DNA from: Dehalococcoidia bacterium
GTDB taxonomy: Bacteria > Chloroflexota > Dehalococcoidia > Lucifugimonadales > UBA3495
DNA length: 64,000 nucleotides
Assembly: GCA_965247605.1 (NCBI GenBank)
Contig: CBDFHM010000011.1
Coordinates: 327,930-391,929 of the forward strand
Reading direction: 5' to 3'
In this document: in pieces, positions 1,357-64,000 of the stretch
Layout of the letters: every line of letters begins with the position of its first letter
How positions within the stretch are numbered: position 1 is the first letter of the stretch
The notes under the pieces: model-generated
Told to the model about the DNA's origin: nothing
Database searches by the model: none
The model's input: only the letters and a program-made list of their open reading frames with translations
Position numbers and translations under genes: made by a program

Positions 1357-1637
1357 TCTAAGATCGGGGGGGTGGTCCGAGGCTGGTGTGTTGCTTCCCG
1401 TGGCGCCGGGCCTCCCGAAAATTGCAAAAGGGTTTTTAGAAAGGGTAAACAAGGGCGTACAACCAGTCTGTCACAGCCCCTGCTTACGGGCAAACCACCT
1501 GCCCTGAGGCTGCGTCGCATGATAGGATATTCAAGAGATAATGGTCTGGCTGCTGGCAGTGTTAGCAGAAATCCGTACCGGTAAGGTCTGTTAGGGCCTA
1601 TGAAAACGCCTCGGCGAGGCAAAGCGGGAGCGCAGAT

Positions 1638-2399: not shown

Positions 2400-2419
2400 G
2401 CCCGCAGTAACCAACTCAC

Positions 2420-2456
2420 AAAAAAACGGCCGCCGTATTTCGGCGGCCGTTTTTCT
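2420..2456. terminator. Bidirectional intrinsic terminator between convergent genes
   Basis: Perfect 10-bp stem ACGGCCGCCG / CGGCGGCCGT (2426-2435 / 2441-2450) with loop TATTT, an A-run upstream and a T-run downstream. Confidence 0.75.
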
Positions 2457-2471
2457 CTTTCGAAACCGGAG

Positions 2472-2499
2472 GCTAAAAGCTGATTGCTGAACGCTGAAA
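2472..2499 (+). repeat. Heptamer tandem array (GCTAAAA GCTGATT GCTGAAC GCTGAAA), GCTGAYN family
   Basis: Read directly from the sequence. Same family as the arrays at 38226, 51841, 55446, 55851, 57324 and 58024. Confidence 0.6.
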
Positions 2500-2500
2500 A

Positions 2501-3430
2501 CTAAAAGATGGCCAACGGGTTCACCGGCGATCCGGTAGCGTTCTTGAACCGCAGGGGCGCCACGTTGAACATGAACTCCCAGCGGTTGAGTCGCTCACAG
2601 ACCTGCACCAGCTCCTCGCAGTTGCCAGCGTCGATCAGCCACAATCCCATGCCGACGATGCCTACCTTGTGTATCGGCAGCCCGACCATCGGATAGCCGC
2701 TGGGTTCGGCATCCACCGAGGCGTCTCCTCCCAGGATCGAAACACCCCGCTCTTTGAGCCACGGCAGCGTTTCCGCGTGGAGACCGGGGCGGCCCGACTC
2801 CGGCGGTCCCAGTTCCAAGCGTCGCTTGTACCAGCCAAACCGGACCATCAGGGCGTCGCCTTCCTCCACCCGCACTCCTTGGGCCTTCTCGGCGGCCTCC
2901 AAGTCTTCGATGAACACGCCCTCTCCGGCCTCGAGCCAGGGCTTTCCCTTGACCTTGGCGATGTCCAACATGACGCCGCGGGTGACCACGCCGTTCTGGG
3001 CCTTGTCGATGTCCAGGCTATTAGCCTTGGTCTCCGAGTTGACGTCCGAGGCCGGCCTGCCGTTGTACATCTTGCCGTTCCAAATCTGGTGGCATAATGC
3101 GTCTAAGTGAGTGATGGTCAGACCGTGAAACGAAAAACCGATGAAGTCGGCGGTGCCGCCCGGGCCCTCGTCGGGGCAGGTGTCGCCGGCGCGAACCATG
3201 TAGTGGAGCGGGGGAATGGAGGTGACGTCCGGCGCAATCTCAGGCACGATCAGCCTGGAACAGGTAACGCTGATACCCTCTTTGACCAGGCTTGCCGCCT
3301 GAGCCCTCTTGGCGTCGGTGATCAGGTTTAGGGTGCCCAACTGGTCGTCGGCGCCCCAGCGGCCCCAATTGCTCAGAGATTCGATCCAACCGATGACTTC
3401 GGCCTCTGTTGGTACCTGCCTCGTAACCAT
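2501..3430 (-). CDS. Cyclase family protein (kynurenine-formamidase-like fold)
   Basis: 309-aa ORF. The N-terminus ...SNWGRWGADDQLGTLNLIT and overall pattern are typical of the putative cyclase family. Confidence 0.75.
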   Translation of the reverse strand: MVTRQVPTEAEVIGWIESLSNWGRWGADDQLGTLNLITDAKRAQAASLVKEGISVTCSRLIVPEIAPDVTSIPPLHYMVRAGDTCPDEGPGGTADFIGFSFHGLTITHLDALCHQIWNGKMYNGRPASDVNSETKANSLDIDKAQNGVVTRGVMLDIAKVKGKPWLEAGEGVFIEDLEAAEKAQGVRVEEGDALMVRFGWYKRRLELGPPESGRPGLHAETLPWLKERGVSILGGDASVDAEPSGYPMVGLPIHKVGIVGMGLWLIDAGNCEELVQVCERLNRWEFMFNVAPLRFKNATGSPVNPLAIF

Positions 3431-3553
3431 GGTCCCCTCCTCTATTTGATTCGTGTATTTGGACCCGCCGTCATTCCGGCCCTTCCGCGGATGGGTAAAC
3501 CAGGGCTATTGGTTTCAGCGTGGCCGGAAAATCCCCCCAACCTCCCATTGCGG

Positions 3554-3691
3554 CCTTGCCTCAAAAGTAGACAAAACCATGTCACCCTGAGCACATCGAA
3601 GGGTCTCGTTGGTAAGTTCAGCCTCACTCGAAGTGGCCCGAACCCAGATTCTTCGTCGCTTCACTCCTCAGAATGACAGGTTTGAGGCAAG
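3554..3691. repeat. Nested palindromic repeat cluster (copy A of the two-armed palindromic element, enclosed by an 11-bp outer inverted repeat)
   Basis: Inner arms are CATGTCACCCTGAGCACATCGAAGGGTCTC (3578-3607) and CAGATTCTTCGTCGCTTCACTCCTCAGAATGACAGG (3645-3680). Outer arms are CTTGCCTCAAA (3555-3565) and TTTGAGGCAAG (3681-3691). Related arm sequences occur at 20888, 27061 and 57355. Confidence 0.6.
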
Positions 3692-3785
3692 ACCCCCCTT
3701 GCGAAAGTGGGGCTAGACGCATTGGGTTGGTGGTGCCGTTTGAAACTACGCCGACACAATAGCGCTTCGGTCGATGGCTGGCAAC

Positions 3786-5447
3786 CTACAGGGGGTAGAG
3801 GTCAGCGATGGTGCCGTCTATGTAGAGAATTTCGATGGTGCGGGTGACGGCAGATTCCAGTTGGCCGAGTGCCTGCGGGTCCAACCCCCGGCCCAGCCGT
3901 TCCACGATGGCCGATACCGGTGTCCGGCCGTCGACCAACGACACCGTGCTGGCCACCACTTGGCTGCAGGGTGTTCCTTCGGGCTGGGAGACACTGTTCA
4001 GGGTGTGGCCCCAAATAAACTCCCCTTCGCCCAAGACCGGCCGACGGGCGACTCGTACCCCATCAGCCAACCGAGGCACTGCTGCCAGGACCTGATTGCG
4101 TTGCGGGTCCGAACGCAAGGCCGCCAAGAGTTGTCCCCGCGCCTGGCGGTCCGCCTCCACGGCCCGCACGTTGGAGATAAATTCGGTGGGTGCCTCCCCG
4201 CGGTCCAAAACAGCCCGCTCGTAGCTGCGGGGCGGTTGCCCCGCCACCGCCTGGATGAAGCTGTGCCGAGGTGAATATTTATCGAGGTTCGAAGGGTCCG
4301 TAATGTGCCGGGCCTCCCAGAAATAGGACTCGGTGGTTAGGTTGCTGGAATAAAACAGGCGGGCCAACTCGCGGAACTGGCGGTACTCCTTGTAGTACAG
4401 CTCCTGGTACACCTGCCCGGCGCTCTCCGTCATGTTGCCGTCGGTTGCGGAACCCTGTTTCAATGCCGTGGTCGTGTAGGCTGCGGCCATCACCCCAGAC
4501 ATCAAGGCCAGGTGGACGCCGGAGGAAAATAACGGGTCCACGAAACAGGCGGCGTCGCCGGTGATTATGTATCCGGGTCCCACCAGCTTGTCGGCGGCGT
4601 AGGACCAGTCGCGGACGACCTGGGGCCCCGTTGCCCATTCAGCGTTCTTCAACCGGGTACGGGTCTGCGACGTTTGGGCCAACTGGCCAGCCAGGAATGC
4701 TCGCGCTCCCAGGCGGCGGATACTCTTCTGTCCAGTCTGGTTGTCCACCACCGCCCCCACGCTGGTCCAACCAGTGTGCAGTGGAATGCTCCAGAACCAG
4801 CCGTGCCGGTACGATTCGATGAATATGTTGTTCTCGTCTGGAGGAGGCAGAGGGGTCACGCCGGTGAAATAGGCGTATACGGCCAGGTTTTGGAAGAACG
4901 AGTCCCACCGCCGCACCTGGGTGTGCCTCGCCAGTAGCGCCGATTGCCCCGTGGCATCGACGACGAACCGGGCGGCGATTTCGCCCCGGCGGTTGTCATC
5001 CGAAACGAACCGCACTCCCGCGGCACGGTCGTCTTCGAATATCACCTCGCCGACCCGGTGACCTTCTTCGACAGTTACACCGGTGGCTCTGGCGTTCTCC
5101 AGCAGTAGTTGGTCGAATTGGGGCCGCCATACTTGGTACGAGTGGGGATTCTGGGGGCTGGTCTCTTTGAAATACCAACTCCAAGGCTCTGGGTCTCGCC
5201 CCCAGACCATGGTCGCGCCCCATTTGGGCAAAAACCCGGCCCGCTCCACCGCTGGCATAACCCCCAACTCCTCCAGAATCGGCATGCTGGCCGGCAGCAG
5301 AGATTCTCCCACATGTTCCCGGGGGAATCGGTGGCGCTCCAAAAGCGTCACCTGCCAGCCTTTCCGGGCCAACATGGTGGCCGCCGCGCTACCGGCGGGC
5401 CCACCGCCGATTACCACCACGTCGGGGTGTGGGTCAGGTCTGTCCAC
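3786..5447 (-). CDS. Flavin-dependent halogenase family protein with C-terminal PqqD-like extension
   Basis: GGGPAGS dinucleotide-binding motif. GWFWSIPL matches the WxWxIP halogenase signature. FVDPLFSSGVHLA motif and a conserved Lys context (LPKWGATMVWG). The last roughly 100 aa (VPRLADGVRVARRPVLGEGEFIW...LVDGRTPVSAIVERLGRGLDPQALGQLESAVTRTIEILYIDGTIADLY) follow the PqqD pattern. Confidence 0.7.
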   Translation of the reverse strand: MDRPDPHPDVVVIGGGPAGSAAATMLARKGWQVTLLERHRFPREHVGESLLPASMPILEELGVMPAVERAGFLPKWGATMVWGRDPEPWSWYFKETSPQNPHSYQVWRPQFDQLLLENARATGVTVEEGHRVGEVIFEDDRAAGVRFVSDDNRRGEIAARFVVDATGQSALLARHTQVRRWDSFFQNLAVYAYFTGVTPLPPPDENNIFIESYRHGWFWSIPLHTGWTSVGAVVDNQTGQKSIRRLGARAFLAGQLAQTSQTRTRLKNAEWATGPQVVRDWSYAADKLVGPGYIITGDAACFVDPLFSSGVHLALMSGVMAAAYTTTALKQGSATDGNMTESAGQVYQELYYKEYRQFRELARLFYSSNLTTESYFWEARHITDPSNLDKYSPRHSFIQAVAGQPPRSYERAVLDRGEAPTEFISNVRAVEADRQARGQLLAALRSDPQRNQVLAAVPRLADGVRVARRPVLGEGEFIWGHTLNSVSQPEGTPCSQVVASTVSLVDGRTPVSAIVERLGRGLDPQALGQLESAVTRTIEILYIDGTIADLYPL

Positions 5448-38067: not shown

Positions 38068-38225
38068 CTATAGCCTGCCGGTGCGTGACCAAGGAGCGGC
38101 GCCTGATCCGAACCATGTGATGAATGACGATTCCACCGCCCTTCATCCAGGCCCCTTCGCCCCTGGATGCAAGGTTGAAGCACCCAACGGTTTAGGATAA
38201 GCTGGCCAACGATACAGTCACCAAT

Positions 38226-38253
38226 CTGATAGCTGAACGCTGACGGCTGATAG
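38226..38253 (+). repeat. Heptamer tandem array (CTGATAG CTGAACG CTGACGG CTGATAG)
   Basis: Read directly. Ends 18 nt upstream of the ATG at 38272. Confidence 0.6.
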
Positions 38254-51822: not shown

Positions 51823-51840
51823 CGGTGCTTCCTAAAATAG

Positions 51841-51949
51841 CTGTCAGCATTCAGCGATCAGCGATCAGCGATCAGCGATCAGCGATCAGCGGTCAGCAGT
51901 CCTCAGGCCTACTCCTGATGGCTGACGGCTGATCGCTGATCGCTGATCG
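51841..51949. repeat. Inverted pair of heptamer arrays: (NNNTCAG)x7, including CGATCAG x4, facing (CTGANNG)x5
   Basis: The sequence is CTGTCAG CATTCAG CGATCAG CGATCAG CGATCAG CGATCAG CGGTCAG, a spacer of about 25 nt, then CTGATGG CTGACGG CTGATCG CTGATCG CTGATCG. The two arrays can pair as a long hairpin. It lies between the peptidase-MA stop and the PPIase start. Confidence 0.85.
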
Positions 51950-51999
51950 CTCGCAAAGCTTGGCCCAGAGCATACCAGAAAGTCCGGGCATGGTGAAAG

Positions 52000-53545: not shown

Positions 53546-55174
53546 CTAGGATTCTTGGGCCAGGGATGCCTTCACTTGAGTGGCCACGTCCGCCGGAACC
53601 CACTGGGTCCAGACGTCCTCGTTAGTCCTCAGGTAGTAGATGGCCGCCTCGTTCCATCCCTTGTCGTTGTCGGCCTTCCAGGCAGCCAGTTCTGCCAGGG
53701 GTAGAGCGCCGACGAACATCTTCCCTAGAAACTCGACCACCTCGGGGGCACGATCCGTAAATGCGGAGGAAACCCCGGTATGAATGTCCGCTACCGGAAA
53801 AGCGCACCCGATGGTGGACTCGTAGGGTTCCGACTCAATCGCCGCTACAATGGCGGCCTGGCACTCAGGGGTCCATTCGGGCTCTTCCAACAAGGTCATG
53901 TCCAGCTCTGCGATTATCTTGGTGGGCTCCCAATAGTAGGAGACCACGGGCTCTCCGGCGGCGTACGCCCCTATAATGTTGGCATCTATGGCCTCGGCGG
54001 AGCCGGGCTCCAACAGGTTGAAAGTATCATACAGGCCGTAGGCGAATCACTTGGCCCGGATTATCTTCTGACACCTCCAGCCGATGATGCAGTTGGTGAC
54101 GACTCCCTTGGATGGGTCCTTCGGGTCCTGGAACAGCTCTATGAAGTTGGGCAGGTCCAGCACCGACTCCAAACCGGGGTTCTGCTCGATCACGTAGGTG
54201 GGCACGTAGATACCTTGCGTGGAAGTCGCCAGTATTTGCCCCACAGCGCCGTATTCAACGTTGTCTCCGGTTCCCGCCAGGTCCACCAGATTGCCGGAGG
54301 CCACGTTTTCTTCATACCAGTCCTGTTGGTTTTGTCGCCACATCTCCATGTTCACGTCCAGGTCGCCCGCGGGCAGAGCTACTTTCATGGTGCCTGTGGT
54401 CCCGGTGATCTGCTCCACCGGGTAGCCATAGCCGTGCTGGGTGATGTACATGGCGATGGCGTTGTGCTCCTGGATGGTCTCCCACTGGGGGTCGTGGAAT
54501 CTGACAACCTCTTTGGCTGTAGGAGCTGTCGGCGCAGACGTGAGAGTTGGAACTGGCGCAACCGCCGGTAGGGGTGTCGAGCTAGCTACTGCTTCCCGTT
54601 CCGCCGTCACCGGCACAGCTTTGGTTGCCTCTACTTCCACCGCAGCCGGCGTTGGCCCCAGGGTGGGCGTAGGAGTCGGAGCCGGAGTCTCGGCCGGAGT
54701 CTCGGTAGGAGCAACCACTGCAACCGTGCTGCCATCGCCCTCACCGCCGCCGTCACCTCCGGCGACCAAGACCAGTCCCACCACTGCTGCTATAACGACT
54801 GCCACCAGCCCGATGGCTACGGGAACGACGGGAAACCGGCGCCCTCCCTCTGGCACGGGAAGGCCGAGCACCTGCCGGTGGGCGACGGTCCCTTCTTTCT
54901 CGATGAAAAACTGCTCTTGTCCTTGGGCGCCGGTGAACTGGCCCTGGGGGCGGAAGGACAGGGTGACCATGTAGTGGTCTTCCGTCTCATTGTCCTCGAC
55001 GACCTCGAAGGCCATCGGGACGTTCCTGAAACGGCGTCCGTACGCGCCGGGGTCCTCCCTGGCGGTTCGCATGGCCAAGACCCGGGCCTGGTCCAACGAG
55101 ATATAGCCCAGCGCCTCTCCCGCCGAGTCGAACTCGAACTTCTGCTCCTCTTTTTCGCCCTGATCTTCGGCCAT
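53546..55174 (-). pseudogene. Glycine-betaine/choline-type (ProX/OpuAC-like) substrate-binding protein with cytoplasmic N-domain and TM anchor; in-frame TGA at 54049-54047
   Basis: The two track ORFs (54047-55174 and 53546-54013) are in the same frame and are separated only by TGA: ...NCIIGWRCQKIIRAK-TGA-FAYGLYDTFNLLEPGSAEAIDANIIGAYAAGEPVVSYYWEP... The segment aligns by eye with E. coli ProX [21 protein letters not shown]...FYYTWTPYW. Confidence 0.7.
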
Positions 55175-55389
55175 GGGGACCTCTATAGCCTCTTGAGCCC
55201 TCTTGGCGGCACTCCAGCCCTTGCGGCAACCGGACGGCCTTGTAAGCCATTATTGGGGTGACGCGTTGTTCAGTCAAGGACGGACATCGGGACAGCGATA
55301 CACGGAGCAGCCATTGGTGGGGCGGTGAACATTATCCGTAATTTTAAACTTTGGTTAATCATAATTCGAAAAACCATGACCGGCGGTGA

Positions 55390-55419
55390 TTGATAAGCCG
55401 TACATCCGTTCTATATAAT
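55390..55419 (+). promoter_or_regulatory. Candidate promoter with LexA (Cheo-box-like) site for the mutasome cassette
   Basis: TTGATA (55390-55395), 18-nt spacer, TATAAT (55414-55419). The spacer contains CGTACATCCGTTCT (55399-55412), compared with the Gram-positive/Dehalococcoides-type consensus CGAACRNRYGTTYC. There are 3 mismatches, one of them in the GAAC half. Confidence 0.3.
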
Positions 55420-55445
55420 CCCGAAGCTATTCCACGTGTGGGGAG

Positions 55446-55507
55446 CAATCAGCCGTCAGCGGTCAGCAATCAGCCCCCACCCCAAAGCTGAGAGCTGATA
55501 GCTAAGA
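55446..55507. repeat. Inverted heptamer arrays immediately upstream of the four-helix-bundle gene
   Basis: CAATCAG CCGTCAG CGGTCAG CAATCAG, then CCCCCACCCCAAA, then GCTGAGA GCTGATA GCTAAGA. ATG 55509 follows. Confidence 0.75.
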
Positions 55508-55508
55508 A

Positions 55509-55868
55509 ATGAAAGACTTTAGAGAGTTGAAAGTCTGGGAGAAGGGCCATCGGTTGGCCTTGGCTGTTTACAAGGCGACTGCCGCGTTTCCAAAAGATGA
55601 GCTGTACGGGCTGACCGGCCAAATCCGGCGGTCTTGCGTGTCTATCCCAGCCAATATTGCCGAAGGTTGCGGCAGGAATGGAGATGCCGAGCTTGCCCGT
55701 TTTCTCCAGATCGCCATGGGCTCGGCCAGTGAACTGGAGTACCACATCCTACTCGCCCACGATATCGGCTTACTGAGTAACGCAAGTTACGAGCAGCTTT
55801 CACTAGATACGACCGAGGTTAAGCGAATGTTGGCATCCTTCATCCATACACTGAAAGCTGACCGCTGA
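55509..55868 (+). CDS. Four-helix-bundle protein (23S rRNA-intervening-sequence protein family)
   Basis: FRELKVWEKGHRLALAVYKATAAFPKDELYGLTGQIRRSCVSIPANIAEGCGR...FLQIAMGSASELEYHILLA is the family signature. Confidence 0.85.
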   Translation: MKDFRELKVWEKGHRLALAVYKATAAFPKDELYGLTGQIRRSCVSIPANIAEGCGRNGDAELARFLQIAMGSASELEYHILLAHDIGLLSNASYEQLSLDTTEVKRMLASFIHTLKADR

Positions 55869-55892
55869 AAGCTGACCGCTGATGGCTAAAAG
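55851..55892 (+). repeat. Heptamer tandem array spanning the 4HB stop and the imuB start
   Basis: CTGAAAG CTGACCG CTGAAAG CTGACCG CTGATGG CTAAAAG. The TGA stop is at 55866-55868 and the imuB ATG at 55882-55884. Confidence 0.8.
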
Positions 55893-57087
55893 CTTGATTG
55901 CTTGCCTGCTGGTAACCCACCTTCCCGTAAAAGCGGAGATAGGGCGCTATCCCCAGCTCCGGGGAAGGCCGGTTGTCATAACTGAGAGCTATGGCTCAAA
56001 GGAGCTGGTGCTGGACAGCTCCCCCGAGGCCCGGGGCGTTGCCGCCGGCATGTCCTTTCAGGAAGCCGTGTCCCGGTGCAAGGACGCGGTCCTGCTCCAG
56101 GTGGATGCTCCCTACTACGAGTCGCGCTTCGACGCGGTGGTCCGCTCCCTGGAGGGGAGAAGCCCCCTGGTGGAGAAGGGCGAGTTGGGCTGCGCTTACG
56201 TGGGGCTGGGCGGTCTGGAAGCAATGTACGGGGGCGAGGCCAGGCTGATAGCGACCTTGCTCCAGGCGGCGCCCCCTGAGTTCAATCCCCGTATCGGGGT
56301 GGCCGCTGGAAAGTTTCCGGCCTACGTCGCCGCGGTAACCAGCAGCAGCGGCCGGGCCACCAGGGTGCCCCGGGACGCCGCAGGGTTCCTCAAGGAGTAC
56401 TCCATAGACCTGCTGCCCCTGTCCTGGGAAAACAAGTCCCGCCTGCACCACTTCGGGCTGCACACCCTGGGCCAGTTGGCCGCCCTGCCGGTGGGGTCCG
56501 TCCAGGCCCAGCTAAAGTCTGAGGGCAGGAGGGCTTGGGAGCTGGCCGGCGGCATCGACTCCAGTCCCTTGGCGCCCTACCAGCGCGAGGAGGTAGTTGA
56601 TGAGTTCCTCACCTTTCCTTCACCCACCGTAGACCGCCACGCCATCCTGATGGGCCTGGAGATCTTGCTGGGCAGGGCCTTTGCCCGCCCGGAAATCAGG
56701 GGCAGGTATGTCCGCACCGCCACCGTCGAGAGCCAGGTTGGGCCGAGAAAACCTCCCTGGTCCCGGCGCTTCCCTTTCAAGGATGCGGTGGGCAGCAAGG
56801 AGAAGGCCCTGTGGGTCCTGAAAAGCCGGCTGGATACAATGCTGGATACAAGGGCCCTACCCGGACCTCTGGAGGATATGAAGCTGACTTTGGCCGGGTT
56901 CACCGGCGAAACCGGCATCCAGGCTAGCCTTTTCTCCGACGTCCGCCGGCGGGAGCAGCTCCGGGAGATGATGCGCCAGTTGGAGGCGCTCCTGGGTTGC
57001 AAGCCGCCCATCTACCAGGTAAAGGATGTGGAACCATGGTCCAGAGTTCCCGAAAGACGTCAGGCCCTGGTCCAATTCGAGCCCTGA
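55882..57087 (+). CDS. imuB: ImuB-like inactive Y-family DNA polymerase
   Basis: Y-family fold (..SPLVEKGELGCAYVGLGGLE.., ..LPLSWENKSRLHHFGLHTLGQLAALP.. HhH). The N-terminal acidic catalytic motif is replaced (LLVTHLPVKAE). It lies upstream of dnaE2. Confidence 0.75.
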   Translation: MAKSLIACLLVTHLPVKAEIGRYPQLRGRPVVITESYGSKELVLDSSPEARGVAAGMSFQEAVSRCKDAVLLQVDAPYYESRFDAVVRSLEGRSPLVEKGELGCAYVGLGGLEAMYGGEARLIATLLQAAPPEFNPRIGVAAGKFPAYVAAVTSSSGRATRVPRDAAGFLKEYSIDLLPLSWENKSRLHHFGLHTLGQLAALPVGSVQAQLKSEGRRAWELAGGIDSSPLAPYQREEVVDEFLTFPSPTVDRHAILMGLEILLGRAFARPEIRGRYVRTATVESQVGPRKPPWSRRFPFKDAVGSKEKALWVLKSRLDTMLDTRALPGPLEDMKLTLAGFTGETGIQASLFSDVRRREQLREMMRQLEALLGCKPPIYQVKDVEPWSRVPERRQALVQFEP

Positions 57088-57323
57088 ACCTTCCCGTACC
57101 CCTGGCCGTTGAAGAGGATGCCCACCAGAAGCCCCTGGCCCTTACCCTGCGAGGCCGAAGGTTCGAGGTGGCCTCCATAGACGACCTGTGGGAAATCGGC
57201 GACCAGTGGTGGCGGGAGAAGGCCGTGTCCAGGAAGTATTACCAGGTAGCCATTGGGGAGGGCAGACGCATCACCATCTTTCGGGACCTGATTTCCGGGG
57301 GATGGTACCGGCAGAAGGGTTAG
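57036..57323 (+). CDS. Small conserved-looking hypothetical protein downstream of imuB (start uncertain)
   Basis: ...LALTLRGRRFEVASIDDLWEIGDQWWREKAVSRKYYQVAIGEGRRITIFRDLISGGWYRQKG. The only ATG in frame (57036) overlaps the imuB 3' end by about 50 nt. Confidence 0.45.
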   Translation: MVQSSRKTSGPGPIRALNLPVPLAVEEDAHQKPLALTLRGRRFEVASIDDLWEIGDQWWREKAVSRKYYQVAIGEGRRITIFRDLISGGWYRQKG

Positions 57324-57351
57324 GCGATCAGCTATGAGCAGTCAGCTATCG
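57324..57351 (+). repeat. Heptamer tandem array (GCGATCA GCTATGA GCAGTCA GCTATCG)
   Basis: Read directly. Abuts the left arm of the GIY-YIG element. Confidence 0.55.
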
Positions 57352-57354
57352 GTA

Positions 57355-57746
57355 CGAAAATGTCATGCTGAGCCAGCCGCAGCGGCGAAGCATCTGGGGT
57401 GGGGCTGAACTCTGTAGTGAACCAATACTACGTTTACATCATGTCCAGCCATCGAGGGACGCTCTACATCGGCGTAACCAACAACCTTCTACGCCGAGTG
57501 CATGAACACCGCCATAAACTTGTAGACGGATTCACCAAAAGGTATAACGTCTCAAAGCTAGTATATTACGAGGTAACAGAGAATATTGAGTCTGCGATTG
57601 TGCGAGAGAAGCAGATCAAAGGTTGGCTGCGCCGTAAGAAGGTTGACCTTATTGAATCGTCGAATCCCTATTGGATTGACTTGGCCGAAGCGTGGAGTGG
57701 GAGCCCCGCCACCCCAGACCCTTCGCTTCACTCAGGGTGACAATTC
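57355..57746 (+). mobile_element. Two-armed palindromic element, copy D, carrying a GIY-YIG nuclease gene in its loop
   Basis: The left arm (57355-57405) is CGAAAATGTCATGCTGAGCCAGCCGCAGCGGCGAAGCATCTGGGGTGGGGC. The reverse complement of the right arm (57703-57746) is GAATTGTCACCCTGAGTGAAGCGAAGGGTCTGGGGTGGCGGGGC. The same two arm types flank only 21-nt loops at 20888-20998 and 27061-27193. Confidence 0.7.
57399..57740 (+). CDS. GIY-YIG nuclease family protein (UPF0213-like)
   Basis: YYVYIMSSHRGTLYIGVTNNLLRRVHEHRHKLVDGFTKRYNVSKLVYYEVTENIESAIVREKQIKGWLRRKKVDLIESSNPYWIDL. The true start may be GTG 57417. The last 14 codons run into the right repeat arm. Confidence 0.8.
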   Translation: MGLNSVVNQYYVYIMSSHRGTLYIGVTNNLLRRVHEHRHKLVDGFTKRYNVSKLVYYEVTENIESAIVREKQIKGWLRRKKVDLIESSNPYWIDLAEAWSGSPATPDPSLHSG

Positions 57747-57802
57747 TCGCCCCTATGCATCGGTTTCTTTCGGGCCAAAAAGGAGATGTGACGTTCAAGA
57801 GT

Positions 57803-58041
57803 GGTCTTGCGTGTCTATCCCAGCCAACATTGCCGAAGGTTGCGGCAGGAATGGAGACGCTGAGCTTGCTCGGTTCCTCCAGATCGCCATGGGTTCGGCC
57901 AGTGAACTGGAGTACCACCTTATGCTCAGTCGCGACCTCGGCTTGCTGACTGCTGTAGAACACAAGCAACTTACTGCAGACACCACGGAAGTGAAGCGTA
58001 TGCTTACATCCTTCATTCAAACTCTAAAAGCTAACCGCTGA
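57803..58041 (+). pseudogene. 5'-truncated second copy of the four-helix-bundle gene
   Basis: From GGTCTTGCGTGTCTATCCCAGCC onward it is near-identical in nucleotide sequence to 55636-55868 (SCVSIPANIAEGCGRNGDAELARFLQIAMGSASELEYH...). The first 42 or so codons are missing, replaced by the GIY-YIG element plus about 56 nt. Confidence 0.8.
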
Positions 58042-58071
58042 CCCTGATAGCTGACCGCTGATGACTGATAG
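58024..58071 (+). repeat. Heptamer array spanning the truncated-4HB stop and the dnaE2 start
   Basis: CTAAAAG CTAACCG CTGACCC TGATAG CTGACCG CTGATGA CTGATAG. The TGA is at 58039-58041 and the dnaE2 ATG at 58061-58063. GCTGACCGCTGATG is shared with the imuB start. Confidence 0.8.
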
Positions 58072-61000
58072 CTTCGTATACGCCGAACTCCACTGCCACA
58101 GTAACTACTCTTTCCAGGAGGGGGCCTCCTCCGTGGAGGAGCTGCTGGTACGCTCCAGGGACCTGGGCTACCAGGCCCTGGCCCTGACCGACCACGACAA
58201 CCTATGCGGGGCGATGCACTTTGCCCAGGTTGCCCGGAGCCTGGACGTGCAGGCCATCACCGGAGCGGAGGTCACCCTCAAGGACGGCTCCCACCTGACC
58301 CTTCTGGCCGAGACGCGGCAGGGATACAGCAACCTGTGCCGGATGATCTCCTACTCCCACATTGCCGGCGATCGCAGGAACCCCGGCCTGGAGCTCAAAT
58401 ACCTGCCGGAGTTGGCCCAGGGCATCATCCTGCTCACCGGCTGCCGGCAGGGGCCGGTGCCGGCCCTTGTGGCCCAAGGACGCCACCGGGAGGCCGAAGA
58501 CGCGCTGGCCCAGTACCTGGACTGGTTCGGTACGGCCAACGTCTTCGTGGAGCTGCAGCAGAACCTGATCAAGGGCGACACCACGCGTAACCGGCGGCTC
58601 ATGGAGCTGGCCCGCAAGTTTGACCTCGCGCCGGTGGCCACCAACAACGTCCACTACCACATCCCGGAGCGCCACCGGCTCCAGGATGCCCTGGTGGCCA
58701 TCCGCAACAACCAGAGTCTGGAGGAGACCCACCGGGAACGCCGCCCCAACGGGCAGTTTTACCTCAAGCCTCCGGCGGAAATAGCGGACCTGTTTCGTGA
58801 GTGCCCCCAGGCCGTGGCGAACACCCTGCGGATAGCCGGCCGGTGCACCTTTGACATTACCAGGGACCTGGGCTACCGGTTTCCCGACTACCCGGTGCCC
58901 CAAGGTTTCACTTCCCAGAGCTACCTGGAGCACCTGTGTTACCAGGCCGCCGAACGCCGCTACGGCGGCATCAACGAAAAAGTAAAGACGCGGCTGGAGG
59001 AGGAGTTTCGCCTGATCCAGAAACATGACCTGGCGGGGTTCTTCCTGATTTACTACGAGATCATTCAGATGGCCCGGCAGATCATGATCGAGCTGGGCCT
59101 GAGCGAGGTGGAGATACCCCTGGAAGAGCGTCCGCCGGGAAGGGGCAGGGGCTCCTCGGTGGCCATGCTGGTGGGCTACCTCATCGGTCTCTCCCACATC
59201 GACCCACTGGAGTTCAACCTCTCCCTGGATCGTTTTCTCTCCGACGACATGGGCTCGGTCCCCGACATCGACCTGGACTTTCCCCGCAACATCCGGGAGG
59301 AGCTGATCAAGCGGGTGCACCAGAAGTGGGGATGGGACCATGCCACCCTCACCGGGATGATCAGCACCTATCGGATGAAGGGCGCCATCCGGGACCTGGG
59401 CAAGGCATTGGGGCTTCCTTCACAGGAGGTGGACAAGCTGGCCAAGCGGGTAGATTCTCACAGTGCCAGGGAGCTGGAGCTGGAGATGCGGTCGCTGCCC
59501 GAGTTCCGGGAAAAGGTGGACTTTCCCGGGTGGCGCGACCTCATCGACCTGGCGGCCCAACTGGACGGGTTCCCCAAGTACCTGGCCCAACACCCCGGCG
59601 GCATGATTATCAGCTCCTCTCCACTCATCGACATGGTGCCGGTGCAACAGGCGGCCATCGATGAGCGCTACATCTGCCATTGGGATAAGGACAGCATCGA
59701 CCAGGCCGGCTTCGTGAAGATCGACTTTCTGGCCCTGGGCGCCTTGTCCCAGATGCAGGAAACCCTCCAGCTTATCGAGGAGCGGGAGGGCCACTACATC
59801 GACCTGAGCCGCATCGATTTCGAGGACCAGGCAGTGTACGGGATGATGCACCGGGCCGATACCATCGGAATATTCCAGGTGGAGTCGGCGGCCCAGATGC
59901 AGACCGTCCCCCGCATCAAGCCCGTGAACCTGACCGACATGGCCTATGAAGTAGGGGCGGTACGTCCCGGCGTTGGGGTCAACGACGGGGTCACCCAGTT
60001 CATTCAGCGGCGTACGCAGAATGTACCCTGGGACTACGACCATTCCTTGGAACGGCGGGCCCTGGAACGGACCCTGGGCATCATCCTGTTTCAGGACCAG
60101 GTAAACCAGGTGGCCATGGACGTGGCCGGGTTCACCGCCGTGGAGGCGGACCAGCTCCGGCGGGCCTTTAACCGGAGGAACAACCAGGACTTGATCGCTT
60201 TCTACTGGGAAAAGTTTCGGCAGGGGGCCGTTGACCTGGGCGTTCCCGAGGACGTGGCCCAGAAGATCTTCAAGAAGTTCAATGGCCACTATATGTTTCC
60301 CGAGTCCCACGCCTTCGCCTTTGGCGCCACCGCTTACCATATGGCCTGGCTCAAGTATTACTATCCCTTGGAATTCTTCGTCGCCATCTTCAACCAGCAG
60401 CCCATGGGGTTCTACAATACGGAAACCTTGAAGGAGGATGCCCGGCGCCACGGAATAACCGTCCTCAACCCGGACATCAACGCCAGCATGGAGAAGTGCA
60501 TCGTCAAAGACGAGTCCCTGCTGCTGGGGTTCCTGTATGTAAGAGGTGTGGGAGAAACTGGTGCGGAGGCGATTGTCCAGGCAAGGGAGGGGGATGGCCC
60601 CTTTGCCAGCCTGGCCGATGTGATGCAGCGGACCGGGTTGCAGCAAGAAGCCGTGGAGAACCTGGTGAAGGCCGGGGCCTTGGACTCTCTGCAAACTGTT
60701 GCGGGAATCCCCCCTAGCCCCCCTGAAATCCCCCCAACCCCCCTTTACGAAAGGGGGGCACGGGGGGATTTTGGTGAGCCCTCAGGCGGTGTAAGGGCGA
60801 TTCGCGAATCGCCCCTACAAGACACACCTGTTGAACCCGTTCGTGGTGAGCTTGTTGAACCACGAGCGGTGCCTGGCTCGGTGCCTGGTTCAATCGAAAA
60901 ACCGGACCGGGACAAGCCGGACCGCAGGACAGCCCTATGGGAGGTGGGGCTGCGCTATCACCCCGTTGGATACCAGCAGCCGCTGCCCCTTCCCGTGGAG

Positions 61001-61429
61001 CAGGACATGGCCCAGTTACCTCAGCAGAGCGGGTGGGACGTCATGGTTGATGAATACCATACCCTGGGCCTGCATCCAGCGGGGCACCTGATGGCTATGC
61101 TCAGGCCTCATCTTGCCCCGGGGATTTTGAGCAGCCGGGAAGTCCCGGAACTGGCCGATGGCACGGAGGTAACGGTGGCCGGCCTGGTAATCCGCCGGCA
61201 GCGGCCCTTGGCCAAGGCGGTGTTTATCACCCTGGAGGATGAGTTCGGGCATGTCCCCCTGGTGGTATGGCCCAAGGTCTTTTTTCGATACCGCCGGGTG
61301 ATACGCGAGCCGGTGCTCATTGTGCGCGGCACGGTTTCCAAGCGGGATGGCACCATGAACATAGTGGCCCGGCACGTGGTCAGCGCCAGGAGCGCCCGCC
61401 ATTTACCCAAGGCGAAAAACTGGCAGTAG
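58061..61429 (+). CDS. dnaE2: Error-prone DNA polymerase III alpha subunit DnaE2 (with in-frame insertion of about 75 aa)
   Basis: PHP domain YAELHCHSNYSFQEGASSVEEL, the polymerase core, HhH, and a C-terminal OB fold (VTVAGLVIRRQRPLAKAVFITLEDEFGHVPLVVWP). Lies downstream of imuB. Confidence 0.9.
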   Translation: MTDSFVYAELHCHSNYSFQEGASSVEELLVRSRDLGYQALALTDHDNLCGAMHFAQVARSLDVQAITGAEVTLKDGSHLTLLAETRQGYSNLCRMISYSHIAGDRRNPGLELKYLPELAQGIILLTGCRQGPVPALVAQGRHREAEDALAQYLDWFGTANVFVELQQNLIKGDTTRNRRLMELARKFDLAPVATNNVHYHIPERHRLQDALVAIRNNQSLEETHRERRPNGQFYLKPPAEIADLFRECPQAVANTLRIAGRCTFDITRDLGYRFPDYPVPQGFTSQSYLEHLCYQAAERRYGGINEKVKTRLEEEFRLIQKHDLAGFFLIYYEIIQMARQIMIELGLSEVEIPLEERPPGRGRGSSVAMLVGYLIGLSHIDPLEFNLSLDRFLSDDMGSVPDIDLDFPRNIREELIKRVHQKWGWDHATLTGMISTYRMKGAIRDLGKALGLPSQEVDKLAKRVDSHSARELELEMRSLPEFREKVDFPGWRDLIDLAAQLDGFPKYLAQHPGGMIISSSPLIDMVPVQQAAIDERYICHWDKDSIDQAGFVKIDFLALGALSQMQETLQLIEEREGHYIDLSRIDFEDQAVYGMMHRADTIGIFQVESAAQMQTVPRIKPVNLTDMAYEVGAVRPGVGVNDGVTQFIQRRTQNVPWDYDHSLERRALERTLGIILFQDQVNQVAMDVAGFTAVEADQLRRAFNRRNNQDLIAFYWEKFRQGAVDLGVPEDVAQKIFKKFNGHYMFPESHAFAFGATAYHMAWLKYYYPLEFFVAIFNQQPMGFYNTETLKEDARRHGITVLNPDINASMEKCIVKDESLLLGFLYVRGVGETGAEAIVQAREGDGPFASLADVMQRTGLQQEAVENLVKAGALDSLQTVAGIPPSPPEIPPTPLYERGARGDFGEPSGGVRAIRESPLQDTPVEPVRGELVEPRAVPGSVPGSIEKPDRDKPDRRTALWEVGLRYHPVGYQQPLPLPVEQDMAQLPQQSGWDVMVDEYHTLGLHPAGHLMAMLRPHLAPGILSSREVPELADGTEVTVAGLVIRRQRPLAKAVFITLEDEFGHVPLVVWPKVFFRYRRVIREPVLIVRGTVSKRDGTMNIVARHVVSARSARHLPKAKNWQ
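60700..60925 (+). repeat. Cluster of three hairpin-repeat modules embedded in-frame in dnaE2
   Basis: Module 1: AATCCCCCCTAGCCCCCCTGAAATCCCCCCAACCCCCCTTTACGAAAGGGGGGCACGGGGGGATTT (AATCCCCC family). Module 2: GGGCGATTCGCGAATCGCCC, a perfect 20-bp palindrome. Module 3: CCGTTCGTGG...CCACGAGCGG. Together they translate as IPPSPPEIPPTPLYERGARGDFGEPSGGVRAIRESPLQDTPVEPVRGELVEPRAV. Confidence 0.7.
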
Positions 61430-61500
61430 CGCACTCAATCCTAGCGCAAGCGGCCCACAAGCACAGCCCCCGCAAACACGGCCAGACTGAAGACGGGGGT

Positions 61501-63354
61501 TCAGTTCCCTATTAGCGACACCGGAGGAAGATACGGTCCAAGGTACTCAGCTTCCCACCAGGCGCCGTCGGCGCGTTTGGTGGAAAAATCGGTGAAACTG
61601 TATTCGTATAGCTCCGCTCGTACAAAGCGGGGCGGTTTCTCGGGAAATGGGTTGTGGTCCAGTAGTTGGAGAACGTCGGGGGACCCCTGCAACAGCCGCT
61701 CCGCGAAGCTTATGAACCATTGATTTTGCTGGTAAGTACCCAGCGCCGCGAACCACATCTGCCAGTCCAGCCGGGGTTGGTGCGGTTGCGCCCATCGTGG
61801 CATGCGGCCCAAATCACCGGGTTTATATTTGAATTCATAGTCGCTCCAGGTCTGCCCGTCGTTGGAGCCTTGAACCCGGATCTCCCGACGTGAGGTCGTC
61901 ATGTTCGCGAACAGGCCATAGGAGTTAACCACCCGGAAAGGCCCCACCCACCTCATCAGCGTGGCAGCGGGTTCGGGCACGCTGCCGGAAAACGTCCTCA
62001 CCATCTGGAATACCCCCACGTAGAGAACTAATGCCGCCAGAAGGGCCAGGGCCCCATTGCGCAGCGGTAGACGTCTTTCATCGGTCGCGGCGCGCGCAAA
62101 CAAGCCCCTGATCCACCCAGGTAGCCGGCGGCGAACGGCAGCGTCATCCAACAGAAAGAGGCACAAGCCTAAGACCAGCAGGTTGAAGAAATTGAAGTTT
62201 CCCGAGAGAAGGAATACTAGATTTAGGCCGGCTATGCAGGCGGCGGCAAAGAACCGCAATCGCCGGGGAGCGAATATCAGAAACGGGACAACCAACTCTA
62301 CGGACAGCACCATGAATACGGAAGTCTTTTGGAACCACTCGGGTAGCTGATGCAGGTACCAAGAGGTAAATAAGGGTAGGGGCTGTGTTTCAAAATGAAA
62401 GTTTAGCGCGGTGAGACCCCGCCAGGTGGGGTCCCCGCTCAGCAGCTTGACCGCGCCGGATAGAAACATGAACTTGAATACCAAGGCACGAAACAGAAAC
62501 ACCACCGCCGGTCCGGGAAGGGTGAGGAATATCGCTAGGAAACCCACTTCCAGCAGGAGGCTGTCCCACTGGAACGCCATGAACACCTGACCCGCCGAGA
62601 CCAGAGAAAGGTAGAGGATAAACAGTGGCGCCAGCCAGATGCGCGGCTTTACCCCCAGGATCAGCATGGTGGAAAATACGCCGCCGGCGGCCACCACGGC
62701 CATCAGGGCTGCGTTACTGGAGTTGATCCAGAACAGGGTTGGCACAAGCCGGTAGCTATCAAAACCCAGCGATTGGTGGACCTTATCCAGGAAATCACCG
62801 GCGGGCAAAATTCCCTGCGAGCCAATCAGGCCATTGATCTGGACCCCGAAGGAAATGAATGCAATCAAGTAGATGATGCCCAGGACCCGGAGGAACAGAG
62901 AGCAAACCAGACGGTATTCGGGCGGCTGGGGGTGCTGGCCATAAAAGAATCTGGTTGGATAGTAGAATAACGATCGATGCTCGGCGACGAAGCGATATAT
63001 CCACTGGGATAGTGCCGGGAATCCCCACAGGTGCTGGTGGAGCCAGAGAAGCCAACCCTGGCCGGGAGCGTGGTCCAGAGTTCGGAATACAGCGTGGGCG
63101 CCGGTCAGTACCTGCCCATCGGGCATAATGAGGTGTATCGCTGCTTGAAAGGCTGCGGGCGACACCTGGGGAAAATGTTGGAAGACTTCCTGGTAGGGGG
63201 CGTATGAGACCCGCTCCCCGGTTAACCGTCGCCAGTAGTCTACCCACAGGCGGCAAAAACGGCAGTCGCCGTCAAACACCAATAACGGGAGACTGGGGCT
63301 AGTTTCGTTCATTGGAGACTTGAAAGCGCTGAGTCCGCAGGCATCCTTTGACAA
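61501..63354 (-). CDS. DCC-type thiol-disulfide oxidoreductase (DUF393) fused to a lipase-maturation-factor family membrane protein
   Basis: N-terminal LLVFDGDCRFCRLWVDYW (DCC motif), then a multi-TM region, then C-terminal ...VVNSYGLFANMTTSRREIRVQGSNDGQTWSDYEFKYKPGD...RLDWQMWFAAL, typical of the LMF family. The start may be the internal Met (MNETSPS). Confidence 0.7.
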   Translation of the reverse strand: MSKDACGLSAFKSPMNETSPSLPLLVFDGDCRFCRLWVDYWRRLTGERVSYAPYQEVFQHFPQVSPAAFQAAIHLIMPDGQVLTGAHAVFRTLDHAPGQGWLLWLHQHLWGFPALSQWIYRFVAEHRSLFYYPTRFFYGQHPQPPEYRLVCSLFLRVLGIIYLIAFISFGVQINGLIGSQGILPAGDFLDKVHQSLGFDSYRLVPTLFWINSSNAALMAVVAAGGVFSTMLILGVKPRIWLAPLFILYLSLVSAGQVFMAFQWDSLLLEVGFLAIFLTLPGPAVVFLFRALVFKFMFLSGAVKLLSGDPTWRGLTALNFHFETQPLPLFTSWYLHQLPEWFQKTSVFMVLSVELVVPFLIFAPRRLRFFAAACIAGLNLVFLLSGNFNFFNLLVLGLCLFLLDDAAVRRRLPGWIRGLFARAATDERRLPLRNGALALLAALVLYVGVFQMVRTFSGSVPEPAATLMRWVGPFRVVNSYGLFANMTTSRREIRVQGSNDGQTWSDYEFKYKPGDLGRMPRWAQPHQPRLDWQMWFAALGTYQQNQWFISFAERLLQGSPDVLQLLDHNPFPEKPPRFVRAELYEYSFTDFSTKRADGAWWEAEYLGPYLPPVSLIGN

Positions 63355-63469
63355 ACAGATGTGCCCGGGTCGGCGGGATGGGCTGTAAAGCCGTGGCGTC
63401 CGCTGCCGGCTTGGACACGGACGAGGCCGTTGGGTCAGGAATTACAGTGAGCGGAGATAGAGCGGCAGC

Positions 63470-63895
63470 CTATTCGGCAGACGCCTCCAGATCGGCCTTC
63501 ATCTTGTTGAGAAACTTTTTGTCAGGGCCGGAAGCGATCATGCCAAATAGCAGCTTCATAGGCAGCATCAAGGCCGGAATCTTCGTAATCGTGCCCTGCC
63601 GAGTGACCCTGGTCCCTTCCACTTGCTGAGCGGCGGTCATGGTGAAATCCAACTCCCAGTTGTTGGGCATCACCGAGTGGAACGTGAACCGCTCGTTGGG
63701 TCTCATTTCGGTAACAGTCAACCGGTCGGGAGTCTTACCCTGGTGTGATGACGTGTAGGTGTTGCCCACCGCCGGGGGGCCTTCCTGACCGGCTTCTATG
63801 CTTAATTCGTGGGTTGCCCACTTGGTGTGGCGAGTCAGATCGCACATGGCCTTGAATACCTCGTCCACTGGTGCCTGAATGTTTATGCTGGGCAT
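63470..63895 (-). CDS. SRPBCC (START/polyketide-cyclase-like) family protein
   Basis: Start placed at MPSINIQAPVDEVFKAMCDLTRHTKW with AGGAGG 5 nt upstream. Typical SRPBCC N-terminus. Confidence 0.7.
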   Translation of the reverse strand: MPSINIQAPVDEVFKAMCDLTRHTKWATHELSIEAGQEGPPAVGNTYTSSHQGKTPDRLTVTEMRPNERFTFHSVMPNNWELDFTMTAAQQVEGTRVTRQGTITKIPALMLPMKLLFGMIASGPDKKFLNKMKADLEASAE

Positions 63896-64000
63896 TGTGC
63901 CTCCTACTGCGGTTCGTCCCACCCCAACAACACATACCACAAGCTAACGGCTATCGAATTATACTATGGACAAAGCCGGCTACACCATTGGCCTTGCTAT

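Follow-up and report, generated by a model that had tools for sequence, protein, structure and literature searches.

Intervening sequences (IVSs) in the 23S rRNA of Coxiella and Leptospira carry a gene for an S23p protein (PF05635) within stem-forming terminal inverted repeats; tandem heptamers lie directly before the open reading frame (ORF), the ribosome-binding site (RBS) is poor, and the ORF has decayed in some lineages (PMC4990558). The Coxiella stem is cut by RNase III at the first heptamer (PMC4990558), and in bacteria of the Candidate Phyla Radiation (CPR) a given rRNA insertion site may be filled by a 23S_rRNA_IVP gene or by a homing-endonuclease gene (PMC11270868). Mutasomes consisting of an inactive Y-family polymerase (PolY), a stand-alone ImuB C-terminal domain (ImuB-C) and DnaE2 without ImuA have also been described, and RecA was proposed to bind a RecA-NT motif in place of ImuA (PMC6511836, PMC12926913). 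Here we analysed a 64,000-nucleotide (nt) stretch of contig CBDFHM010000011.1 from a marine, SAR202-related member of the Dehalococcoidia, referred to below as the window, in which an operon of imuB-like, ImuB-C and dnaE2 genes is interrupted by small four-helix-bundle (4HB) genes of the 23S rRNA IVS protein family, flanked by arrays of 7-nt repeats (heptamer arms). These units resemble the rRNA IVSs of Coxiella and Leptospira in the PF05635 gene, the enclosing inverted repeats, the heptamers before the ORF, the poor RBS and the decay of some copies, and the alternating contents of the CPR rRNA sites parallel the slots shared by 4HB and nuclease genes in the clade of the window.

We conclude that the 4HB genes and heptamers probably constitute a small IVS-like mobile element rather than parts of the mutasome, and that the operon that they occupy is, with similar probability, an imuA-less SOS-type mutasome. 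All coordinates are positions in the window, of which the region 54800-64000 was read and its ORFs listed. The comparison set comprised 80 loci from species-representative Dehalococcoidia/SAR202 genomes together with others obtained through exact-protein look-ups (individual loci are designated by L numbers); 86 related loci are counted below. Six protein families and the heptamer arrays were mapped onto these loci, and a neighbour-joining tree was built from the polymerase-like protein.

Insertion and turnover of the 4HB elements

The operon was found intact, with neither a 4HB gene nor heptamer arrays, in 37 basal loci of the tree, and the most distant relatives have an ordinary Shine-Dalgarno sequence before imuB. 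The spacer from ImuB-C to dnaE2 measures at most 150 nt in 19 of the loci surveyed, several of which have one of under about 20 nt. Two insertion slots can be told apart in the derived clade: slot 1 is the leader before imuB, and slot 2, which is filled in a wider set of loci, is the junction of ImuB-C and dnaE2. Either slot may hold a 4HB, DUF559 or GIY-YIG gene, remnants of these or combinations of them, and all matches to the three families lay inside the two slots and on the operon strand, with none in the flanks. The last 4HB codons and the downstream arm persist before dnaE2 in many loci where DUF559 or GIY-YIG occupies the slot today, which argues that the 4HB gene came first and that the nuclease genes, with inverted repeats of their own, arrived later. 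The initial annotation had taken relatives without 4HB genes and with ordinary RBSs as the mark of a strain-specific selfish insertion. The selfish part of that statement stands, since the basal loci lack 4HB genes and the most distant ones have ordinary Shine-Dalgarno sequences, while the strain-specific part does not; the comparison identifies the insertion as clade-wide and subject to turnover.

The same unit of arms plus 4HB gene was also found in operons of other phyla. In an NC10 genome (L099:2790-3420) one copy separates cheA from cheB, and in an actinobacterial genome (L101:2890-3430) another separates the genes for the two methylmalonyl-CoA mutase subunits; each encodes a 4HB protein 75-78% identical to that of the window. 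Both units are co-oriented with their operon and fill the spacer from the stop of one gene to the start of the next. The NC10 copy has an inner array before its own ATG, as in the window, and the ATG of the host cheB gene follows 9 nt after the outer array. The intact 4HB protein of the window has more than 8000 homologs, with 75-80% identity across phyla. The NC10 and actinobacterial copies, with the other signs of movement given below, indicate a mobile element of wide host range. Together with the 37 empty basal loci, these foreign copies favour one of the two alternatives offered in the initial annotation, in which the 4HB gene and its heptamers are a selfish cassette inserted at gene 5' ends. 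Literature searches, including searches with the names of the 4HB family, returned no description of heptamer-armed 4HB elements inside operons. A possible kinship with diversity-generating retroelements was considered and rejected: the match of the 4HB protein to the bAvd/Avd family is weak and below cutoff (E=1.6e-4), and no reverse transcriptase occurs among the neighbours in any locus examined.

The heptamer arms are concentrated at the cassette. A search for the three-unit GCTGANN pattern GCTGANNGCTGANNGCTGA with at most 2 mismatches gave 29 occurrences in the window where 0.2 were expected, and across the loci we counted 52 arrays in 253 kb of cassette regions versus 6 in 1066 kb of flanks. 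The order of parts is invariable, with (TCAGCNN)n first, then the small gene, then (GCTGANN)n, and the two arms form inverted repeats of 13-37 nt; in the pair of L021, 31 of 32 positions agree. The units are GCTGACC, GCTGAAA, GCTGATA, GCTGATG and occasionally ACTGATA, and are not TAACTGA units. Among the 23 loci with an occupied slot 2, the upstream arm was detected in 15 and the downstream arm in 13, compared with 0 and 1, respectively, of the 19 compact loci. Preferential retention of the downstream arm, which was considered, is not borne out by these counts. A scan against Rfam returned nothing for the arms and no rRNA at this locus, with only sub-threshold microRNA-like matches on the hairpins.

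Further heptamer arrays in the window stand apart from the 4HB genes. An 'empty' hairpin at 51837-51953, between two minus-strand genes, consists of (TCAGCGA)x6.7, a 17-nt loop and (TCGCTGA)-type units, with a predicted duplex energy of -75 kcal/mol; it is apparently a gene-less version of the 4HB arms. Such arm-to-arm hairpins without a gene were also found in metagenome contigs. A forward array without a 4HB gene at 38225-38250 ends about 20 nt before the ATG (38272) of a 980-aa gene, and another at 2472-2504 abuts the stop of the minus-strand gene 2501-3430, just after a terminator-like hairpin.

The GIY-YIG element of slot 2 shows signs of movement in its own right. Its gene is bounded by inverted repeats that pair in the predicted fold, and its presence is polymorphic among close relatives: the element occurs in L001 and is missing from L002, where a solo repeat remains. 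The repeats of about 45 nt (57355-57405 and 57700-57745) reach a depth of 1400-5400 in metagenome contigs versus about 10 for their flanks. Many repeat-to-repeat joints contain no GIY-YIG gene and only 10-20 nt between the repeats, so miniature copies of this element exist; public metatranscriptome contigs likewise show the abundance of the repeat and 'empty' joints from other loci, but no processing sites. In contigs from marine sediment, both metagenomic and metatranscriptomic, few short sequences are as abundant as these repeats.

The duplication of the 4HB gene pointed out in the initial annotation is real. The two copies in the window form a 239-nt direct repeat of 80% identity, which rises to 92% in the central 120 nt and falls to 68% in the 3' half. 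In L097 (1760-4445), whose imuB is 94.7% identical to that of the window at the nucleotide level, the slots are mirrored relative to window positions 55430-58075. Slot 1 of L097 contains the GIY-YIG::truncated-4HB composite, about 94% identical to the slot-2 composite of the window including the spacer of about 55 nt, but the 3' half of this composite is of the window's slot-1 type; slot 2 of L097 contains an intact 4HB gene of the slot-1 type. The crossover lies in the central 4HB region, where the copies in the window are most alike. Such a mosaic of sequence is what ectopic gene conversion, or homing from one slot to the other, leaves behind.

These comparisons are consistent with the following history. 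One copy of the element would have entered the ImuB-C/dnaE2 junction in the ancestor of the derived clade, and another copy would have entered the leader before imuB in a narrower subclade. GIY-YIG and DUF559 nuclease genes, each with their own inverted repeats, would then have invaded the elements, and in the window the arrival of the GIY-YIG element would have cost the slot-2 4HB gene its 5' half. The slots would have exchanged their contents by gene conversion. The small genes would have no promoter of their own and would be carried on the transcript from the LexA-box promoter of the operon.

The order and places of the parts given in the initial annotation, from a candidate promoter through an intact 4HB gene, imuB, a 95-aa ORF, a GIY-YIG element and a truncated 4HB copy to dnaE2, agreed throughout with our ORF listing and with the Pfam and NCBIfam assignments (Table 1).

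Table 1. Features of the polymerase operon and its two slots, by position in the window
Feature	Position	Strand	Remarks
Sigma-70-type promoter TTGATA-18-TATAAT	55390-55419	+	11/12 positions match
LexA/Cheo-type box GTACATCCGTTC	55400-55411	+	Inside promoter spacer
Heptamer arrays of the leader	55442-55505	+	Before intact 4HB gene
Slot-1 upstream arm (TCAGCNN)n, left terminal inverted repeat	55442-55481	+	Inverted pairs of 30-31 nt, 80-81% complementary to 55851-55894
Inner (GCTGANN)n array, ending directly at 4HB ATG	55487-55507	+	Local hairpin possible with upstream arm
Intact 4HB gene, 119 aa	55509-55868	+	PF05635, E=8e-39; TIGR02436
Slot-1 downstream arm (GCTGANN)n	55850-55894	+	Holds 4HB TGA stop and imuB ATG (55882)
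imuB-like gene, inactive Y-family polymerase, 401 aa	55882-57087	+	PF00817
Stand-alone ImuB-C (DUF6504), 95 aa	57036-57323	+	Other frame; 52-nt overlap with end of imuB-like gene
Slot-2 upstream arm (TCAGCNN)n	57324-57350	+	Directly after ImuB-C stop; 27 nt, 81% complementary to 58046-58072
GIY-YIG mobile element	57361-57743	+	Left inverted repeat 57361-57405, right inverted repeat 57703-57743
GIY-YIG gene	57399-57740	+	PF01541
Spacer, roughly 55 nt	57744-57801	+	Precedes truncated 4HB copy
5'-truncated 4HB copy, residues 41-119 of family	57802-58041	+	Pfam profile positions 38-106 only; frame open
Slot-2 downstream arm (GCTGANN)n	58030-58072	+	Holds TGA of 4HB remnant and dnaE2 ATG (58061)
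dnaE2, error-prone Pol III alpha paralog, 1122 aa	58061-61429	+	NF004225, PHP and DNA_pol3_alpha matches

Outside the operon, an OpuAC-type glycine-betaine-binding gene on the minus strand (53546-55174) is seemingly split: the match of a 375-aa ORF to the Pfam profile ends with the first half, and an adjacent 155-aa ORF resembles the second half; a frameshift, a stop codon or a fault of the assembly could account for the split.

An imuA-less mutasome operon with a split ImuB

The operon itself belongs to a described mutasome type. The imuB-like homologs are uniformly 393-401 aa long, and each is followed by an ORF of about 95 aa. A frameshifted imuB, split into ORFs of 401 and 95 aa, was considered and ruled out by this uniform length and by the conservation of the downstream ORF with its own 'MVxN' start; the imuB-like gene is thus not frameshifted. 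In the alignment, the catalytic 'SIDE' of Dpo4/Dbh corresponds to 'ELGC' in the 401-aa protein, so that the catalytic carboxylates are lost. The residue aligned to the catalytic Asp, G103, is invariant in 18 homologs, as is the N-terminal T12-H13-L14, whose placement at the D-x-D region is a reading of the alignment. The C-terminus carries a clamp-type motif, QASLF, which is kept as QxSLF in the 18 homologs. Nearby stands the putative RecA-NT-like motif EQLREMMRQLEALLG, with the pattern EQLREMMRQLEAxLG in 18 homologs; both motifs were judged by pattern only. Structure matches of the polymerase-like protein were of the DinB/Dpo4 type only, and there is no ImuB-C structure on record among solved structures.

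The nature of the 95-aa ORF had been passed over in the initial annotation. Its profile was aligned by hhalign to residues 426-502 of the 520-aa Azospirillum ImuB with a probability of 92.8% (E=4e-7). Its tblastn matches, on plasmids, all fell at the 3' end of annotated imuB genes, and the two examined closely were both in canonical imuA-imuB-dnaE2 cassettes. DUF6504 was matched weakly in 12 of the 29 members of the 95-aa family. These results identify the ORF as a stand-alone ImuB-C. It was present in essentially all 86 loci; in place of a single ImuB polypeptide, two separate ORFs that overlap encode the 401-aa core and the 95-aa ImuB-C. In L070 (4705-6174), core and ImuB-C apparently form one ORF of 489 aa, the lone fused case in this split family. 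A second, partial Y-family homolog (about residues 23-280 of the query) lies 1-2 kb upstream of the cassette in the basal loci L059, L060, L061 and L075. An exact look-up of the imuB product of the window found no record, and a literature search on 'DUF6504' returned nothing.

The dnaE2 product gave its best NCBIfam match to NF004225, 'error-prone DNA polymerase' (E=5e-271), with 902 bits, just under the cutoff of 939 bits. Its linker contains a 74-aa in-frame insertion at 60695-60919 (residues 879-952), encoded by palindromic DNA resembling a miniature inverted-repeat transposable element, with the motifs CCCCCC..TTT..AAA..GGGGGG and GGGCGATTCGCGAATCGCCC. Most relatives are without this insertion, and the residues corresponding to 878 and 952 abut in L004, L010, L015, L021, L045, L063 and L077. 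The first of the two palindromic motifs resembles the inverted repeats that flank DUF559 in L002 and L004.

No RecA-like or ImuA-like gene was found near the cassette. A phmmer search with E. coli RecA (E<=1e-3) gave no match in a set of 25,074 six-frame ORFs, drawn from the window and from the 86 loci with 8 kb on either side, and two alphaproteobacterial ImuA queries (phmmer, E<=10) gave none in the same set, all searches being made with single-sequence queries. The Pfam lists of neighbouring genes contained no RecA-like or ImuA-like gene either, and the imuA-less architecture is kept in all 86 related Dehalococcoidia/SAR202 loci fetched. The initial annotation was thus right that no RecA-like gene is visible among the ORFs of the window, and an imuA homolog immediately outside the cassette, which it named as a finding that would weaken its idea, turned up neither in the window nor in the 86 loci. 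Its view that the cassette is atypical for want of imuA, with a 4HB gene in that position, does not hold: the layout has already been published (PMC6511836, PMC12926913), and the 95-aa ORF is ImuB-C. The missing imuA is therefore a known variant that leaves nothing for the 4HB gene to explain. By analogy with the literature proposal, the housekeeping RecA presumably replaces the missing ImuA here.

The operon is similar to the 'Kyrpidia tusciae type' (Timinskas & Venclovas 2019, PMC6511836) and to 'DnaE2X-iPolY-ImuB-C-RecA' (NAR 2026, PMC12926913). It has in common with these published imuA-less types a dead Y-family polymerase, putative clamp-type and RecA-NT-like motifs, a separate ImuB-C gene, dnaE2 in the same operon, a LexA-type box and no nearby imuA. 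In contrast to them, about 50 nt are shared by its ImuB-C ORF and the polymerase-like gene, and mobile elements interrupt the operon. Chloroflexi are not mentioned in the text of the 2019 study (PMC6511836), nor Chloroflexota in that of 2026 (PMC12926913). The operon is a further member of a known mutasome type; the newer part is the IVS-like element in an mRNA operon, in which nuclease genes are nested and whose contents pass between slots.

In 81 of the 86 loci, the promoter of the imuB-like gene contains a G[A/T]AC-N4-GTTC box, placed after the -35 and before the -10 element. This box stands 48-140 nt from the imuB-like start in loci with an empty slot 1 and 450-670 nt from it in loci with a filled one. 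We take GAAC-N4-GTTC to be the LexA site of the Gram-positive type, recognised by Dehalococcoides LexA as well. The conservation of this LexA-type box suggests that the operon is very probably SOS-regulated.

Start codons, predicted stems and alternative explanations

Both polymerase start codons lie in heptamer-derived sequence. The two near-identical start-codon strings described in the initial annotation were confirmed at 55871-55893 (imuB) and 58050-58072 (dnaE2), and the surrounding 31-mers are 87% identical. The 4HB TGA stops precede the respective ATGs by 13 and 19 nt, as had been claimed, and no GGAGG-like motif is present in the 20 nt upstream of either ATG. The 4HB gene itself also starts directly after the inner array without a Shine-Dalgarno sequence. 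Because the element apparently replaces the whole stop-to-start spacer, its downstream arm abuts, and here supplies, the start codons of imuB and dnaE2. The dnaE2 start has shifted upstream into the array in the window and in its closest relative, L007 (ATGACTGA..GTATACGCC, not ATGTACGCC), whereas dnaE2 of most relatives starts with ATG-TAC-GCC. Several imuB homologs have N-terminal extensions encoded by heptamers, for example MLTADRS.

In the predicted fold of slot 1, both minimum-energy and centroid, 55871-55887 pairs with 55451-55467 over 17 bp with one G.U, enclosing the imuB AUG. The arms of slot 2 are likewise paired in the minimum-energy and centroid folds, with the dnaE2 AUG inside the predicted helix. 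The z-scores of these predicted long-range stems are -2.7 for slot 1 and -3.6 for slot 2. In the transcript, the arms could thus pair as a long stem around both AUGs, which RNase III could cut as it does in rRNA intervening sequences. Among the mismatches of 16 non-redundant inverted arm pairs, G.U accounted for 7 and A.C for 14. Selection for an RNA stem receives no support from this count, and with no excess of G.U the arms behave as DNA inverted repeats.

Translational coupling of the polymerase genes to the 4HB frames, as suggested in the initial annotation, is plausible. In compact relatives the ImuB-C stop overlaps the dnaE2 start or lies within 10 nt of it, with no Shine-Dalgarno sequence, and in many relatives the downstream arm supplies a TGA to every reading frame, 7-26 nt before dnaE2; it is on these two observations that the plausibility rests. 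In L001-L003, a mini-ORF with a strong GGAGGAGG-ATG start is fused to the last 4HB codons and ends 20 nt before dnaE2. Several relatives have their nearest stop 50-68 nt from the start. A survey of all loci could not separate coupling from chance because short upstream ORFs are too common: by a rough estimate, ORFs of at least 15 codons ending within 30 nt of the start are expected by chance in roughly half of the cases. Where coupling operates, ribosomes translating the 4HB frame, or any other, would stop at the TGAs of the arm and could re-initiate at the next ATG, which would restore the stop-start coupling seen in the compact ImuB-C/dnaE2 relatives.

One alternative holds that the arms are functional post-transcriptional control elements, in which the stem hides the imuB and dnaE2 starts until translation of a small ORF, or RNase III, unmasks them; this would be a second gate on a mutagenic polymerase and is compatible with a selfish origin. 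In a variant of this explanation, the (GCTGANN)n arrays would act as Shine-Dalgarno-independent initiation sites. The enclosure of both AUGs in predicted helices, the lack of Shine-Dalgarno sequences at imuB, dnaE2 and the 4HB gene, the three-frame stops and the mini-ORF of L001-L003 are all in keeping with such control. So is the persistence of the 4HB 3' end before dnaE2 even after the 5' part has been replaced, and a precedent exists in the TAACTGA heptamers that stand directly before RBS-less starts in Beggiatoaceae, cyanobacteria and Bacteroidetes (PMC4679880). However, the mismatches show no bias of G.U over A.C, loci have kept the one arm about as often as the other, most relatives have their AUG outside the arm, and the nearest stop is far from the start in several. 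The coupling survey is uninformative on this point given the frequency of chance ORFs, and basal relatives run the same operon with neither arms nor inserts. We therefore regard control by the arms as rather unlikely.

Recruitment of the 4HB protein as a mutasome subunit or chaperone in place of ImuA, the other alternative offered in the initial annotation, is very improbable. Such a role would fit the recurrence of 4HB genes in the two slots across the derived clade, where each of them follows the LexA-box promoter and reads in the direction of the operon, and its family relatives (Avd) bind nucleic-acid enzymes in diversity-generating retroelements, bearing in mind that the bAvd match of the window protein is weak. 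The close 4HB homologs with context looked up, all of them in this cassette, would also suit a dedicated subunit. Against this, the 37 basal loci have intact operons without it, and within the clade a slot may hold DUF559, GIY-YIG, remnants or nothing, interchangeably with 4HB. One of the two copies in the window is truncated, and the contents of the slots are swapped in the close relative L097. The unit of arms plus 4HB gene also occurs in chemotaxis and mutase operons of other phyla. Moreover, published work gives the role of ImuA to RecA through the RecA-NT motif, and the polymerase of the window keeps a putative motif of this kind. It is hardly credible that the arrangement is a recent insertion peculiar to this strain, or that it was created by misassembly of a metagenome bin rich in repeats. 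The assembly is of the metagenome type, and its highly repeated heptamer arrays and GIY-YIG repeats could cause mis-joins, but other assemblies, made independently from different samples and with closed chromosomes and long contigs among them, show the parts in the same order, and orthologous junctions are conserved base for base.

Several points nevertheless weigh against our conclusion that the 4HB units are IVS-like mobile elements within an imuA-less mutasome operon. The evidence is sequence-based throughout, and the search behind the imuA-less status covered the 64-kb window and 8 kb to either side of the 86 loci. No transposase or integrase was identified for the heptamer-armed element. 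The truncated 4HB frame is still open and protein-like, which a pure pseudogene need not be. The close 4HB homologs whose context was looked up (76-96% identity) were all in this cassette, as a functional association would predict; orthology also explains this. Two further points concern the arms, namely the lack of a G.U excess among their mismatches and the restriction of the AUG-in-stem layout to the lineage of the window.

Relation to described elements and biological meaning

The heptamer-armed 4HB element differs from the 23S rRNA IVS in its location and in its arms. It lies in the stop-to-start spacer of a protein-coding operon and not in a 23S rRNA helix, its arms are themselves heptamer arrays (GCTGANN versus GACAGAT), and RNase III cleavage is predicted only. 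The TAACTGA repeats (MacGregor 2015, PMC4679880) offer a second comparison. As there, the forward heptamers of the window end a few nt before a start codon without a Shine-Dalgarno sequence, provide stops in three frames, sometimes overlap the end of the upstream ORF and share a CTGA core, with ACTGATA units in the window. This layout was found before imuB, dnaE2 and the 4HB gene, and the cheB homolog of NC10 is alike. They differ in that the unit of the window is mostly GCTGANN and that its arrays stand as inverted pairs flanking a small gene. Chloroflexi are unmentioned in the text of the TAACTGA study, where the repeats are not linked to 4HB genes (PMC4679880).

The position of these elements beside gene starts also invites comparison with a Neisseria system. 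The Correia/NEMIS sequences of Neisseria are miniature inverted-repeat elements beside gene starts that are co-transcribed with their neighbours, and the resulting mRNA hairpins are cut by RNase III; gene-less miniature copies are abundant. The elements of the window bear no sequence relationship to them, some of their copies carry a gene, and their processing is predicted only.

Heptamer-armed 4HB elements were found in at least Chloroflexota, NC10 and Actinobacteriota. We tentatively raise the possibility, which we hold to be well short of even, that they represent a widespread and undescribed class of operon-dwelling mobile elements, 'intervening sequences of mRNAs', which here would add a translational gate on the polymerases. 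In such elements, the inner (GCTGANN)n array would start the ORF of the element, and the outer array would stop all frames and restart the host gene; the arms could, in addition, form a stem of the RNase III type. If this is true, it links the S23p rRNA IVSs, the CTGA heptamers at RBS-less starts and the scattered GIY-YIG and DUF559 genes, and small nuclease genes home into these elements and move between slots by gene conversion. The locus suggests that 'intervening sequences' are not confined to rRNA, and CTGA-type heptamer arrays before start codons may be footprints of such elements.

For the biology of mobile elements, the locus preserves the traces of selfish DNA nested within an essential-looking operon. 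For annotation, the 95-aa gene should read ImuB-C rather than hypothetical. For DNA repair, the comparison indicates that Dehalococcoidia/SAR202, which are abundant in the deep ocean and in sediments, carry a split-ImuB, imuA-less mutasome under a LexA-type box. If the arms affect the translation of imuB and dnaE2, a mobile element would set the level of an error-prone polymerase after DNA damage.

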